From: Pyrinomonadaceae bacterium
GTDB taxonomy: Bacteria; Acidobacteriota; Blastocatellia; Pyrinomonadales; Pyrinomonadaceae
NCBI GenBank assembly: GCA_030838445.1
Contig: JAUZFQ010000015.1
Coordinates: 11,001-75,000 of the forward strand
DNA length: 64,000 nucleotides
Direction of reading: 5' to 3'
Below the pieces are notes generated by a model. That model was not told the DNA's origin. It saw nothing but the letters and a program-made list of their open reading frames with translations, and ran no database searches. This document shows, piece by piece, positions 37,736 to 42,374 of the stretch (its first letter is position 1; each line of letters starts with the position of its first letter). Both the position numbers and the translations under genes were made by a program.

Positions 37736-38761
37736 TTAATCACTCCACCTTTTAGCCACTTCCCCGCTATAGAGGTCTCTTTTCACGGCGATTCGCTGTA
37801 CGTACACGCGCGTCGTCGAACGATTCTGATGATCCAGCGCGTTCTGCGTCGCCGTAATGTCGCCCGTAAATTCCGAGACGATGCGCGCGAAGGTGTGCCT
37901 CGTTCGGTGCAAGTGGAAACCTTCGATGCCAGCCTCCCTCGCATACTTCTTCAGATTCTTGACGAAGCAGTGCGAAGTCAACGCCTCGCCCGGCTTCCCC
38001 GCCCGGTCATGCCTTGTCCACAATGGGGCGTCCGACTTGAGCGCGTGCTCCCTCCCGGCCGCCGCGAGATAGTCGATCAGTGCCTCGCCGACCTGTGGCT
38101 CCTTCACCTCCCTACTCCTGTAGTCGCCGCCCTTCGCTCTGTACTCCAGCACGAGCGTTTCGCCCACCCGCACGTCTTTACCCCGTAGTGAGATGGCCTC
38201 GTTCCTCCGCAGCCCCGTCGCCAAGTAAAGGAGCAGCAGCGCGTAGTCTCTTTTCCCCACGATGCCGCCCTCCTTTGAACGTGCCCTTACCGCTCCGATC
38301 AGTTTCCTCACTTCCTCATCCGACAGGGCTTTGACCGACTCAGTCTGGTAAGGCTTGGGCGCTTTGGGGCGGGCGACTCGCGCGGGGTTGCGTCGGACGT
38401 ACTGCCCGACCTCCGGGTCTTTCATCGCCCAAGAGTAGAAGGAAGAAAGCAGGCAGGCATGCTGGTAGACCGTCCCCACGCTAATTCCCTTCCTTTCTAG
38501 CTCCCGCAGCCAACCCTGCACGTCCCCCGGCTCAACCTCACCGGGCAGTTTCCCGATATAACGAAAGAAGGAGAGGACGATGCGCTGCTTGTCCCTGAGA
38601 AGGTCTTGGCGTCGCTCGCTCTCGCCCGTCGTAGCAGACGCCCAGAGCGAGACCGCGCCCTGTAAGACGACTTGGAGGCTTGCTGCTGCCGGAATGAGGG
38701 CTGTTTGGGGCTGTTCAGAGTCCATTTTCGGACTATAACATGAAAATCTGGATGGGTACAC
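37736..38761 (-). CDS. Tyrosine recombinase / phage-type integrase
   Basis: N-terminal SAM-like core-binding domain. Catalytic residues sit in GLRRNEAISL (Arg), HLHRTRHTFA (HxxR) and STTRVYV (Tyr). Confidence 0.9.
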   Translation of the reverse strand: MYPSRFSCYSPKMDSEQPQTALIPAAASLQVVLQGAVSLWASATTGESERRQDLLRDKQRIVLSFFRYIGKLPGEVEPGDVQGWLRELERKGISVGTVYQHACLLSSFYSWAMKDPEVGQYVRRNPARVARPKAPKPYQTESVKALSDEEVRKLIGAVRARSKEGGIVGKRDYALLLLYLATGLRRNEAISLRGKDVRVGETLVLEYRAKGGDYRSREVKEPQVGEALIDYLAAAGREHALKSDAPLWTRHDRAGKPGEALTSHCFVKNLKKYAREAGIEGFHLHRTRHTFARIVSEFTGDITATQNALDHQNRSTTRVYVQRIAVKRDLYSGEVAKRWSD

Positions 38762-38871: not shown

Positions 38872-39657
38872 TTGAGAGCCACAAGACGCCGACAGCGTAA
38901 ACCAGACCCGCTAGCCTCAGCACAGGCTGTCCGTTCTATCATCGGACACCTGCGTTCAGCACTGCCAGAGATCATCCCTCACAAAGACAAGGAGTTGATT
39001 CGACTGCTCCGCGCTGCCCGTCATATTCAGCGTTACCGCGCGACTGATACCAATCGTGGCCGCCCTGGCAAATGGAAGCGCGAGGAGTTACTTAGCGTAG
39101 TTGCACGACTGGAGCACATCCTTGACCGTGAAACATCTTCGCACATCTCCCTCGCGAGTTTCGTAGAGCATTATCTGCGGCTGCTCGATTTCCCTACCGA
39201 TGTGGTCGAGGTGCTCGAAAAGGGTGAGATTAATCTTTTCGAAGCCGAGCAGCTTGCGCGGGTCACTGCCGGACGGCTGGAAGTCACGTCCGGCCAAGCA
39301 AAGCGCACGCGTGGAGAACTTCTCTCCTCCCATTTGCAAACAAAGGCTTCCGGCGACCGGCTCCGGAAGCGGGTCAATGAACTGCTCCGCACTTCAATCG
39401 CAAACACAGGAGATGGCACAGTTGATATCCCTGCGGCTAATCCGGAGGATTTAGAGGACTTCGACCCTTATGACTCCACGCACCTGTTCTGGGAGCAACT
39501 CAAGCAACTGGGCTTCGCCTTCAGGGCGATCCGACGTGAGGATGTGACTGATGAGGAGATTGAAGAATTATTGAAAGCCAGCGAGCCAATCTTGGCGACT
39601 TTGAACAGAATCCAGCGCCGTCGAGAGCAGATGAAGTTTATCAAAGTGGAGTTGTAA
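38872..39657 (+). CDS. Hypothetical protein with ParB/KorB-like HTH segment (tentative)
   Basis: TTG start. The segment SLASFVEHYLRLLDFPTDVVEVLEKGEINLFEAEQLARV resembles the ParB HTH region. No ParB/Srx N-terminal GxxR motif was recognised. Confidence 0.4.
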   Translation: MRATRRRQRKPDPLASAQAVRSIIGHLRSALPEIIPHKDKELIRLLRAARHIQRYRATDTNRGRPGKWKREELLSVVARLEHILDRETSSHISLASFVEHYLRLLDFPTDVVEVLEKGEINLFEAEQLARVTAGRLEVTSGQAKRTRGELLSSHLQTKASGDRLRKRVNELLRTSIANTGDGTVDIPAANPEDLEDFDPYDSTHLFWEQLKQLGFAFRAIRREDVTDEEIEELLKASEPILATLNRIQRRREQMKFIKVEL

Positions 39658-39842
39658 TGGATGCCCGTTTAGTAAAGTATGTGAAAATTGGCTAAAAAGA
39701 GCCTCCTTTCAGTAAAATTTTGCAAATTTTGCAAATGTTCCAGGGACTAAGGCTCGCATTGTTTGGTGAATAAACTCCTTATCTTTTCCCCATCGTAAGC
39801 CAAGGTGTTTGATAGAATTTTTGAAAATTTACGGTGGAGCTA

Positions 39843-40889
39843 CTAATCACTTTTTGTCCGTAGTGTTTGGTGCGTGCAACGGGCTACGCCTTTGTCGGGG
39901 CCATTCGGGTACCACCAGCCGGTTGCGCCGCAATCAGGGCACTGTGAGGCGTCAATGGGCGGCTCGGAGGATGTTTCTGCGACGACCTGCTCTTCGAGTT
40001 GTTTCTTGTCGAGTTTCCATAATCTACGCCGGAGATGCTCGGTGAGAAACGCGGGCACGGATGAGACTGTGGTGCGGGCGGCCGCGATTTTGAGTTCTGC
40101 CGAGAGTAGTTCAAAGAGAGGCTCCCAAGCCTGATTGTTGGATTCTTTGCCCGTCAGTTCCCTTTCCGCCTCGCGGAGCGATTTGGCGAAAGCCTCATCA
40201 TCAAAAAATTTTTCTATAGTCTTAAAAGAAGTCTTAGGAGGGCTAGAAGTATCAGTGTTCTCAACAGATAGACCCCTGTCACCCCTGTCAGATTCTGACC
40301 CCTGTACCATGTGTAGATCTTGCACTGTCACACCCCTGTCACCCCTGTCACCCCTGTGCCCCTTCTCAATGCCCACCTCTTCCGGCAAATAAACGGTAAA
40401 AAGATTGCCGCCATGCTCCCCTCCCTTTTCTTCAACCGTAACCAGACCGGATAAAACGAGCCTCTGGAGATGCGCGCGGTAGGTGTGGCGGGTCATGCCG
40501 GCACCGCGCATCACTCTGTCTGTAGGAATACGTTCAGATCGTTTGGGGACGATAGCTCCACGCGTCTGTGAATAGAGATAATCGTAGAGCTGTTTACCTT
40601 TACCGGTAAAGAGTCCGGCCGGAATCGCGTCGCGCACGACGGAATTCGCCACGCGTGCGAAATCTCTTTTGGGTGCTGCGTCCCCTGTCACCCCTGTCAC
40701 AGGGGTGACAGGGGTGACAGATGTCACAGGGGTGACGTCTGTGACAGGGGTGACAGGGGTTGAAATCTCTTCGGGCTTGATTAGATCGTCGTGAGGCAAA
40801 CGCAACGCTGTCGGTACCATCAGGCCGAGCTTCTTTTTGGGCTGTGGGCTGCGTAAAGAGCTGGCAGGTTTGGGTTTAGTCTCTCCCAT
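39843..40889 (-). CDS. Putative replication-initiator-like winged-helix protein with C-terminal Cys cluster
   Basis: wHTH-like segment LYDYLYSQTRG...MTRHTYRAHLQRLVLSGLVTVEEKGGEHGGNLFTV, plus C-terminal CPDCGATGWW...ARCTH. It is the last gene of the xis-parA-rep operon and carries repeat arrays inside its coding sequence. Confidence 0.45.
   Translation of the reverse strand: MGETKPKPASSLRSPQPKKKLGLMVPTALRLPHDDLIKPEEISTPVTPVTDVTPVTSVTPVTPVTGVTGDAAPKRDFARVANSVVRDAIPAGLFTGKGKQLYDYLYSQTRGAIVPKRSERIPTDRVMRGAGMTRHTYRAHLQRLVLSGLVTVEEKGGEHGGNLFTVYLPEEVGIEKGHRGDRGDRGVTVQDLHMVQGSESDRGDRGLSVENTDTSSPPKTSFKTIEKFFDDEAFAKSLREAERELTGKESNNQAWEPLFELLSAELKIAAARTTVSSVPAFLTEHLRRRLWKLDKKQLEEQVVAETSSEPPIDASQCPDCGATGWWYPNGPDKGVARCTHQTLRTKSD
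40273..40357. repeat. Cluster of six CCCCTGT(C/A) iteron-like motifs (period 9 within sub-clusters)
   Basis: Motif copies at 40273, 40282, 40299, 40333, 40342 and 40351 (plus strand), all in the same orientation, inside the Rep-like ORF. Confidence 0.9.
40682..40759. repeat. 33-bp perfect palindrome plus a further run of the same 9-mer in inverted orientation
   Basis: CCCCTGTCACCCCTGT-c-ACAGGGGTGACAGGGG (40682-40714), followed by repeated (A)GGGGTGAC units up to 40759. On the coding strand this encodes VTPVT repeats. Confidence 0.9.
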
Positions 40890-40897
40890 TGATTACC

Positions 40898-41713
40898 TCA
40901 TTTAACGGCGGAAATCTTCTGCCGGGACATTTGTAGCCGGTCTAGAACCTCTTCGGTCAAACTCCAAAGCTGGTCGGAAGCACGGTGCGACTTGGCGTAC
41001 AAGACGGCCGGTAGTTTCTGTGACGGTGCTTCCGCCACTTTTGAGTAATCGTGCAAGTTGGTGTCGAACACGTGGCCGACAAGGCCGATGGCGGCTTCTA
41101 CTGCACTGCGTGACTCCGCGGACAAGTTGCGTTGCGGTTTATAGAGATTTATCACCGCTCCGAGCATTTGGAGGCTGGAATTGACATTTTTTCGCACCTG
41201 CTCGATGGTGAAGGCTAAATCGGAGAGACCTTGCAAACCCATCGCGTCGGAGGCGCAGGGGACGATGACAAAATCGGAAGCGTAAAGCGCGGCAGTTAAT
41301 AGCTTTCCGAGTTGCGGCGGGCAGTCTATGAAGACCAGATCATAGCCTTTGCCGTGCTCCTGAAGTTGATTCCTAAGGCGGTGCGTCAGGTAGTCCGGTT
41401 GCATCTCGAATCTGGCGAGACGAATGTCGGCCGGAACGAGGTCAAGCCCTTCGACAGGGCTTTCCAGAATGGCGTCATCGAGGGGAAGTGGCTCGACTTT
41501 GACGCCCGTCGTGGATTCCGGCTCGATCAGGACATGAGAAAGCGTGGCCTCGTAGACGTCCGAATCAACCCAAGAGGACGTTAGATTTCCTTGCGGGTCG
41601 GCGTCTATCGTGAGGGTCTGGTGACCTCTCAGCGCGCAGCAGGCGGACAATTCGCGGCAGACGGTGGTCTTGCCGACGCCGCCTTTCTGGTTGGCGATGG
41701 CGATGGTGATCAT
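40898..41713 (-). CDS. parA: ParA/Soj-family partition ATPase
   Basis: Deviant Walker A IAIANQKGGVGKTT and Walker A' DADPQGN. Its start overlaps the xis stop (ATGA). Confidence 0.9.
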   Translation of the reverse strand: MITIAIANQKGGVGKTTVCRELSACCALRGHQTLTIDADPQGNLTSSWVDSDVYEATLSHVLIEPESTTGVKVEPLPLDDAILESPVEGLDLVPADIRLARFEMQPDYLTHRLRNQLQEHGKGYDLVFIDCPPQLGKLLTAALYASDFVIVPCASDAMGLQGLSDLAFTIEQVRKNVNSSLQMLGAVINLYKPQRNLSAESRSAVEAAIGLVGHVFDTNLHDYSKVAEAPSQKLPAVLYAKSHRASDQLWSLTEEVLDRLQMSRQKISAVK

Positions 41714-41928
41714 GCTGCGATTCCTCTGCGTACTTTTTCGGCGTCCTCAAGCACGCGCTCTATGTCACACTTTTTGACTAACTTGATGCGGGTGTCCAGG
41801 ACGTCTGTCAGTGTCTGGATTTGGTATGAGCGGATGATGCGCCAAAGGGTGGTTCGTGAGACGCCGAGCATCTCCTGTGCGGCGGTTAGGGTCAGAGTTT
41901 CGTCATGCTGTTTGGCAATTGCCATCAT
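41710..41928 (-). CDS. Excisionase/MerR-superfamily helix-turn-helix DNA-binding protein
   Basis: 72 aa with LTAAQEMLGVSRTTLWRIIRS, typical of Xis/AlpA-type HTH_17 proteins. Confidence 0.7.
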   Translation of the reverse strand: MMAIAKQHDETLTLTAAQEMLGVSRTTLWRIIRSYQIQTLTDVLDTRIKLVKKCDIERVLEDAEKVRRGIAA

Positions 41929-42239
41929 TACACCTCGTAAGTGTTGAATAAGGCGAGAAAGCGTCTTTTACAGCGAATACCGTCAGATGTCAATAGATAC
42001 GTTTCAACTTGCAGGCGGGAAGCTTGGGTGGAGCAGGGAACTCAGCGCTTTACGGCGAAGCGTGCGACGGCGATTGATAGGTTTCGGATTCGCTCAGGGT
42101 GTTTATGGATCGTAATGCAGAACCGCGTTGGGCGGTGCGGTGGCATGAAGATATCAACCGACGGTTGTGACGGTCGAAACCTGAAATCGTCATATGTAAA
42201 TAGAGCCGGTTATTACGTCCTGTTATTACTACGTCCTGT

Positions 42240-42374
42240 TCAGACTCCATGCTCGATCTCCCGCGCCAGCCCTGCCTTCACCATCTTCCAATCGCGGTTA
42301 ATCGTAGCCGCCGAGATGCCTAACCCTTCCGCCTCTTCTTCGTTTCCCGGTCGCCCGCGAAACGTTTTGTCCAG
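42240..42374 (-). pseudogene. Remnant of an ECF sigma factor (region 4 only)
   Basis: The 44-codon fragment LDKTFRGRPGNEEEAEGLGISAATINRDWKMVKAGLAREIEHGV aligns by eye with the C-terminus of the intact ECF sigma at 51783-52388 (...[31 protein letters not shown]). It is preceded by an in-frame stop, and no regions 1-3 are present. Confidence 0.5.

Follow-up and report, generated by a model that had tools for sequence, protein, structure and literature searches.

Within a 64-kb stretch of DNA from a soil acidobacterium of the family Pyrinomonadaceae (here called the window), the gene at 39843-40889 on the minus strand encodes P0001, a 348-aa winged-helix protein, and carries inside its reading frame two arrays of a 9-base word that are maintained by selection on the DNA rather than on the peptide. 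Judging from the covariation between the word and the recognition helix of the encoded protein, it is very likely that proteins of the P0001 type bind the word in their own gene (self-recognition). Together with a conserved AT-rich element beside one of the arrays, the repeats can be read as iterons, that is, as cis-acting binding sites for the self-encoded winged-helix protein, that would make up a replication origin located inside the initiator gene of a small mobile element, a reading in which our confidence and our doubt are about evenly balanced.

A 9-base word is repeated in two arrays within the P0001 gene

We counted the word on either strand, CCCCTGTCA and TGACAGGGG being the complementary forms of one 9-mer. 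The window contains nine exact copies, all of them at 40273-40759 within the open reading frame (ORF) of P0001, where 0.23 copies are expected from shuffled sequences and none of 100 shuffles reaches nine. Two further copies differ by one mismatch (40697-40705 and 40724-40732) and two more by two mismatches (40299-40307, CCCCTGTAC, and 40351-40359, CCCCTGTGC), bringing the total to 13. The count of at least 13 copies given in an earlier, sequence-only reading of this DNA is thus reached when degenerate units are included, but not by exact copies. Across the whole assembly (4.56 Mb), we found 19 exact copies, including the nine in this ORF, so the word is not common genome-wide and the proposed local enrichment holds. 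The sole other site in this genome with two tandem copies of TGACAGGGG is C57:7448-7465, where one open frame reads DRGDRG; this pair could be a chance occurrence or a secondary target.

The copies are arranged in two arrays that flank the part of the gene encoding the winged-helix domain, and both arrays have a period of 9 nt according to Tandem Repeats Finder, in line with the periodicity first noticed. The promoter-proximal (N) array (40682-40759) consists of nine 9-nt units, two copies of CCCCTGTCA followed by seven inverted ones, of which four are good and three degenerate. Within it lies the perfect 33-bp palindrome that had been reported at 40682-40714 and that proved to be exact, with two 16-nt arms (40682-40697 and 40699-40714) that are 100% complementary and separated by a 1-nt spacer (16+1+16). 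In the central (C) array (40273-40359), every unit has the same orientation, with exact copies of CCCCTGTCA starting at 40273, 40282, 40333, and 40342 and degenerate ones at 40299 and 40351.

Selection acts on the DNA of the arrays

Read on the coding strand, the word appears as GTG ACA GGG (V-T-G) and GAC AGG GGT (D-R-G), and its complement as ACC CCT GTC (T-P-V). The N array accordingly reads TPVT...VTGVTG and the central array a series of DRG repeats that use the rare Arg codon AGG; the peptide repeats described earlier over the arrays are indeed found in the ORF translation, as TPVTPVTDVTPVTSVTPVTPVTGVTG and HRGDRGDRG...SDRGDRG. We compared codon usage among ten homologues that share the word, restricting the comparison to columns with an invariant amino acid. 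Within the central array, 86% of comparisons showed the same codon, versus 46% in the remaining gene, and the codons kept in the array include the rare AGG. In lineages whose arrays have a period of 10 nt, one 10-mer is translated in all three frames successively (for example, four copies of CCACCACTCC give HHS-PPL-PTT-PHH), which indicates that the periodicity follows the DNA helix and not the codon.

Distant homologues lack the exact window word; at both corresponding gene positions they have a different repeated word instead, again in both orientations (examples are TAGTCTGAC, CTAGTACCAC, GTACTCAGAG, and GGTAGGGGT), and both arrays change their word together while the peptide changes completely. 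Selection therefore acts on the DNA and not on the peptide. The sequence-only reading had arrived at selection on the DNA and had set against it the case of a peptide kept over scrambled DNA. What we observed is the opposite, namely a locally unique word that is kept at synonymous sites and switched in both arrays at once, over a peptide that is replaced in distant homologues.

Both arrays of a locus share one word, matched by the recognition helix

The survey of words covered 44 loci, 43 of them with a complete 5' part. A locus-specific 8-mer is present in both arrays at 43 of these 43 loci, and at 40 of them each array holds at least two copies. Inside the genes, the 360 copies are confined to the two array zones, and the 277 kb of flanking DNA contains only six copies of locus-specific 8-mers. 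Merging register shifts reduces the 26 different 8-mers to about 20 distinct words, with periods of 9 or 10 nt. In several lineages, all units have one orientation and palindromes are absent. Where copies of the gene reside in one genome (G015, G003, and G063), they all differ in word, which is the pattern expected if identical words were incompatible (incompatibility avoidance). At one locus (L021, 6230-6790), we also noted about 10 copies of a repeat containing CTCCACGCGCGTGGAG, with a 61-nt period and the look of a CRISPR array, 1.3 kb downstream of the cassette.

P0001 itself consists of an N-terminal basic peptide (aa 1-37; 40779-40889, minus strand; ...KPKKKLGLxVPTALRLPHDDLI), a winged-helix domain (aa 77-167), a conserved helical C-terminal domain (aa 231-300), and a CxxC...CxH zinc-ribbon-like tail. 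A first structure model was poor (predicted local distance difference test [pLDDT] score of 51), and a truncated, deeper model was better (pLDDT 69). The inter-array segment (40358-40681, minus strand) encodes the winged-helix DNA-binding domain with the recognition region GMTRHTYRAH (pLDDT 76-92), and the domain is predicted to be flanked on both sides by disordered linkers that the arrays encode.

The word goes with this DNA-binding domain. Specifically, recognition-helix motif and word vary together over 42 loci: GMTRHTYRAH or GMTRNTFRxH is paired with ACAGGGGT in all loci that have this word, at 64-100% core identity, DISTKTLFLN with GAGTAC-type words, I[SA]RVTFEAN with CAGACTAG, INIKTIDxH with CCACCACT-type words, and ISERTL.KN with GGGGTGG-type words. 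The earlier suggestion that the repeats are binding sites of an element-encoded protein, acting as an origin or a centromere, gains support from this correspondence, since the word changes in step with the recognition helix that its own gene encodes. The small helix-turn-helix (HTH) protein encoded farther upstream (41710-41928, minus strand; 72 aa, HTH_17/excisionase-like) is not the reader of the word, because it diverges without a change of word.

A conserved AT-rich element adjoins the central array

The lowest-GC 40-mer of the P0001 gene (40197-40236; GC content of 0.20) lies beside the central array. Its core, AAGACTTCTTTTAAGAC (40219-40235, minus strand), is located 36 nt past the last unit of the array, encodes KTSFKT, and is unique both in the window and in the genome. 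In every lineage, whatever its word, CTAAGACTTCTTTTAAGAC(T/A)A...GATGATGA is found 36 nt past the central array, and the element is the lowest-GC 40-mer in each gene (0.20-0.30 versus 0.52-0.60 for the genes). Its Thr codon is ACT at almost all loci despite a GC background of 63%, and where the peptide varies (SF, LI, FI, LY, or FF), the DNA remains T/A only. No sigma-70-like site was found in the element, so that an internal promoter was rejected.

The NTPase partner and the word are exchanged as separate modules

Directly upstream of the P0001 gene lies parA (40898-41713, minus strand), which ends 8 nt before the P0001 start, overlaps at its own start by 4 nt with the small HTH gene, and encodes a Walker-type ParA/MinD ATPase of 271 aa (AAA_31, E value of 2e-43, and CbiA; ParA_partition below the cut-off). 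Among close relatives (loci L001-L006 and L011), ParA retains 98-100% protein identity at about 85% DNA identity, which implies strong purifying selection; the downstream winged-helix protein (79-96%) and the neighboring kinase are much less constrained. An NTPase gene is found directly upstream on the same strand at all 42 loci with upstream sequence, encoding ParA at 35 and an AAA_22 ATPase at seven (for example, L010, 3046-3879; L012, 3019-3852; L049, 595-1392). Where the AAA_22 (TniB/ORC-like) gene replaces parA, it overlaps the start of the winged-helix gene by 11-34 nt.

The type of the N-terminal basic peptide goes with the type of the NTPase and not with the word. Between the window and loci L014 and L016, ParA (87% identity) and the N-terminal peptide are shared while the word and the DNA-binding domain (46%) differ; between the window and L013, L008, and L017, the word and the domain (58-68%) are shared while ParA (28-33%) and the N-terminal peptide differ.

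P0001 shows weak similarity to replication initiators

More than 2,187 homologues of P0001, forming 774 clusters at 50% identity, are all annotated as "hypothetical," and most of them come from metagenome-assembled genomes of Pyrinomonadaceae. Pfam and NCBIfam contain no family for P0001, and Pfam has none for 40 diverse members either. In particular, neither P0001 nor these 40 members matched RepA_N (PF06970), and Pfam gave no match to Phage_rep_O or phage_rep_org_N for P0001 or family members. P0001 likewise has no match to the RP-C domain or to a ParB or RHH family, its fold being a winged HTH (wHTH). Rep_3 gave no domain match, and a single wHTH is predicted rather than two tandem winged-helix domains, which speaks against initiators of the Rep_3 type such as RepE, Pi, and RepA-pPS10. 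PADLOC returned no meaningful match, and an identity as a defense system was rejected.

Profile searches against the PDB found only generic wHTH domains of the AraR/GntR kind (E values of 0.014-0.28). Foldseek against the PDB also returned generic winged helices, with the RepA N-terminal domain (NTD) structures 5kbj, 4pql, and 4pt7 among the top matches at E values (0.02-0.13) no better than those for MarR or CodY. Against predicted viral structures (BFVD), we obtained 37 matches at an E value of ≤1e-3 and a probability of ~1.0; generic "helix-turn-helix" labels aside, the informatively named ones are mostly replication initiators, replisome organizers, lambda GpO-N, and protein O, and the template modeling scores of those named O, replisome organizer, or replication initiator are only 0.21-0.39. 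PHROG 270, "replication initiation protein," matched weakly (E value of 0.0024). We take these fold and PHROG similarities as a weak lead toward replication initiators and not as membership. The designation "Rep-like" used in the sequence-only reading thus finds no backing in the sequence families and survives only as a weak similarity of this kind.

Two candidate readings: an origin inside an initiator gene or a partition centromere

Both an origin and a centromere would need an array recognized by the protein of its own gene, and both predict diversification of the word. We favor the origin over the centromere because a conserved AT-rich element adjoins the central array. Moreover, the low-GC island in which the gene resides has no other initiator candidate besides P0001 and holds a further gene, ParB-HTH-like, whose product could work with ParA, which again argues for an origin. 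By analogy, the in-gene iteron anatomy of lambda O, RepA_N, and RepC would favor this reading as well, as would the fold leads and the AAA_22 partners. At the level of structure prediction, it is also supported by the location of the arrays in putatively disordered segments, similar to the dispensable ori-encoded linker of the pSK41 Rep protein (PMC5703833).

In the mechanism that we propose, the winged helix would bind the 9-bp units, whose spacing is close to one turn of the DNA helix, and oligomerization on the central array would strain and open the AT-rich element, at a distance of 36 nt. Recruitment of the host replication machinery might then fall to the conserved C-terminal domain, and the promoter-proximal array, including the palindrome, may serve in autoregulation or origin pairing. 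The array DNA would be tolerated in frame because it encodes disordered linkers. Binding, the firing of the origin, and the life cycle of the element are what we infer from the observations above.

Several results weigh against an origin. There are no DnaA boxes near the arrays (dnaA is located on other contigs). In the best-matching soil run, the Logan contig depth of the island (~7-9) matches that of its flanks (~8-10), and no circular junction of the island was seen among the Logan contigs of that run. A tblastn search of public plasmid and phage collections found no homologue of the P0001 gene. On G000:C197, in the genome of the window itself, and on G159:C4, the global minimum of cumulative gene orientation coincides exactly with the module, but these are only two of six long contigs, and on the four others the module is not at a switch of gene orientation. 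The peptide that the AT-rich element encodes, KTSFKT..DD, is itself conserved and is a possible short linear motif. As set out above, P0001 belongs to no Rep family by sequence, and its generic fold is matched equally well by CodY and MarR. Finally, the winged-helix gene is never solitary at the 42 loci with upstream sequence, as expected of a partner of ParA, and the N-terminal peptide is matched to the type of NTPase, as it would be in a centromere-binding protein.

Some further observations concern the contigs that carry the module. On C197 (window, 5-64 kb), about 20 minus-strand genes lie to the left of the module and mostly plus-strand genes to its right. The 311-kb contig G127:C3 has no terminal overlap. 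All seven module contigs of G015 are ≤138 kb and none is among the five contigs of >200 kb, a distribution that is confounded by assembly breaks at repeated modules. Excision or amplification of the island was considered and rejected; depth spikes at 41.3-42.0 kb are due to cross-mapping of the conserved parA.

The strongest competitor is a partition centromere, which we regard as possible but distinctly less probable than the origin. The arrays would then be similar to parC or parS, and the winged-helix protein would be the centromere-binding adaptor of ParA, instead of or besides initiating replication, with its N-terminal basic peptide stimulating the ATPase activity of ParA. The gene does occupy the position of a parB, always directly downstream of the NTPase gene and separated from it by an 8-nt gap in the window. 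The double dissociation, in which ParA and the N-terminal peptide move together and the word and the DNA-binding domain move together, fits an adaptor, short contiguous repeats grouped in two clusters and in either orientation are a typical centromere layout, and many loci comprise only a two- or three-gene cassette amid ordinary accessory genes. However, a sequence-conserved AT-rich element at a fixed spacing is nothing that a centromere is known to need, and the partner at seven of 42 loci would be an AAA_22 ATPase, a type not known as a partition motor. P0001 has no ParB or RHH fold, and its fold matches lean toward replication initiators. The island would furthermore be left without any initiator while already possessing a ParB-HTH-like gene, and the linkage between the N-terminal peptide and the NTPase gene may equally reflect physical adjacency and recombination at the array. 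It is tempting to speculate that the NTPase and winged-helix genes form a self-contained two-gene maintenance cassette, in which one protein, by way of the sites inside its own gene, initiates replication and hands the DNA over to the ParA/AAA_22 motor; we consider this combination less probable again, and what probability it has is already counted within that of the origin and that of the centromere.

It is improbable that the arrays are merely an autoregulatory operator or roadblock, through which the protein would bind its own gene to throttle transcription without any role in replication or segregation. The inverted repeats and the palindrome of the 5' array resemble the operators of Rep dimers in iteron plasmids, and the covariation between helix and word fits any model of self-binding. 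Yet such an operator leaves two arrays plus an AT-rich element, the obligate NTPase partner, and the word differences among co-resident copies unexplained, and about 12 sites seem excessive for it. Least probable of all is that the repeats serve at the protein level, as low-complexity TPV/DRG linkers, or as an mRNA hairpin, with the DNA word being incidental: although TPVT and RGDRG repeats are discernible in homologues down to 53% identity and the palindrome could fold in mRNA, one and the same word is translated in three different frames or orientations, 10-nt-period arrays run through all three frames, synonymous sites are frozen, peptides are wholly replaced upon a change of word, and the palindromes are missing from the single-orientation lineages mentioned above. 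A known RNA was rejected as well, the Rfam scan giving only sub-threshold microRNA-like hairpin matches that are due to the palindrome.

The gene lies in a low-GC island and its family is patchily distributed

The P0001 gene is part of a low-GC island of 5.4 kb (~37.4-42.8 kb; GC content of 0.54 versus 0.64) that sits between an alpha-2-macroglobulin (A2M) gene and a PAS/GAF kinase gene. A tyrosine recombinase (integrase) gene (37736-38761, minus strand) lies at its edge, followed by a gene for a 261-aa protein (38872-39657, plus strand) with a sub-threshold HTH_ParB match (E value of 0.011) and the motif LEKGEINLFEAEQLARV. The excisionase-like HTH protein is encoded in the island as well, and this composition fits a minimal integrative plasmid-like element. 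The same island is present in G152, of the same genus. In G129, also of the same genus, the recombinase and ParB-HTH-like genes (80% and 74% identical) lie inverted beside the same A2M gene and are joined to an AAA_22 ATPase gene and a winged-helix gene with another word; exchange of the NTPase/winged-helix pair thus leaves the ParB-HTH-like gene linked to the recombinase gene. Three other relatives (G047, G153, and G163) lack the module at this site, but their A2M and kinase genes are not adjacent, so that no clean empty site was obtained, and no flanking direct repeat of ≥14 nt that might mark att sites was found around 37.3-42.9 kb.

Two further repeats were noted in the island. One is a tandem 16-nt direct repeat (TTATTACGTCCTGTTA / TTACTACGTCCTGTTC; 42210-42241) that precedes the HTH-parA operon by ~280 nt and might bind a protein, as an operator or otherwise. 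The AT-rich gap at 39700-39840, between the convergent genes at 38872-39657 (plus strand) and 39843-40889 (minus strand), contains ATTTTGCAA twice in tandem; convergent genes need no promoter there.

The family is patchy: of 151 Pyrinomonadaceae genomes, 55 have it, and the copy number per genome ranges over 0-11. Elsewhere in the Acidobacteriota it is nearly absent, with three of 301 genomes positive, all three inside the class Blastocatellia.

Significance and comparison with known systems

The arrays offer a clean natural case of dual coding, in which codon choice gives way to a function of the DNA and repeats with a 10-nt period cross the reading frame. They also provide about 20 matched pairs of recognition helix and DNA word in one scaffold, which should be useful for deriving the rules of winged-helix specificity and as orthogonal parts, and they give an unannotated protein family of more than 2,000 members, all "hypothetical," a testable role. 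If the two-gene cassette holds true, it would be the first replicon family described for the Blastocatellia (Acidobacteriota), and an easily reprogrammed one, with nature providing 20 or more orthogonal protein-DNA pairs, as many as 11 of them side by side in one genome. Since Acidobacteria are abundant in soil and without genetic tools, a candidate replicon or maintenance cassette of ~2.2 kb that is native to Pyrinomonadaceae might form the core of a shuttle vector.

A close anatomical parallel is the origin of phage lambda, where four 18-bp iterons and a 38-bp AT-rich stretch lie inside gene O (PMC3349717). There, as here, iterons are followed by an AT-rich stretch of ~40 bp within the coding sequence of the initiator or putative initiator, between the parts for DNA binding and partner binding (PMC3349717). 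The named BFVD matches of P0001, which include lambda GpO-N, replication protein O, and replisome organizers, point weakly in the same direction. Among lambdoid phages, the iteron type and the N-terminal domain of O covary between related phages. In contrast to lambda O, whose units measure 18-19 bp, the units here are contiguous and 9-10 bp long, a second array lies upstream of the coding part for the DNA-binding domain, and the partner is an upstream ParA/AAA_22 ATPase instead of a downstream P-like loader. The host, moreover, belongs to the Acidobacteriota, no phage genes are nearby, and neither Phage_rep_O nor any other Pfam family matches.

The RepA_N plasmids (pSK41, pAD1, and pTZ2162) have a winged-helix NTD that binds Rep boxes located centrally in rep, and pAD1 has ParA-type partition genes adjacent to rep. 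As the iterons of this group lie within rep and encode a non-essential linker, so the arrays here lie within the P0001 coding sequence, in predicted disordered segments, with the DNA word kept and the peptide varying. The NTD structures of this family are among the best PDB fold matches, at E values no better than those for MarR or CodY. The origin of pSK41 consists of four Rep boxes centrally within rep that encode a dispensable linker (PMC5703833). On the other hand, the RepA_N Pfam domain was not detected in P0001, there are two arrays and not one, and the family is restricted to the class Blastocatellia.

In repABC replicons, the ParA-like RepA is cotranscribed with the initiator RepC, and an AT-rich oriV lies inside repC. 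The locus in the window is similar in that a ParA-type gene and a putative initiator gene share one operon, with the candidate origin inside the initiator gene, but no RepB/ParB gene lies between them, RP-C is not matched, and the putative origin is iteron based. Plasmid centromeres such as parC of R1, tubC, and the omega-binding heptads of pSM19035 have short repeats that adjoin one another in two clusters and run in both orientations. The clusters of direct and inverted repeats, a reader that is a small DNA-binding protein encoded beside the motor gene, and a specificity that diversifies and thereby avoids incompatibility recall these type I, II, and III centromeres. Unlike in those systems, the sites here lie inside the coding sequence of their own reader, which is a 350-aa winged-helix protein with a conserved C-terminal domain, an AT-rich element is present, and some members have an AAA_22 ATPase as the motor. 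That a replicon-maintenance protein has its binding sites inside its own gene is a known principle (lambda O, RepA_N, and RepC), whereas the protein family, the twin arrays flanking the segment for the DNA-binding domain, the extent of specificity switching, the pairing with ParA/AAA_22, and the host clade are new.

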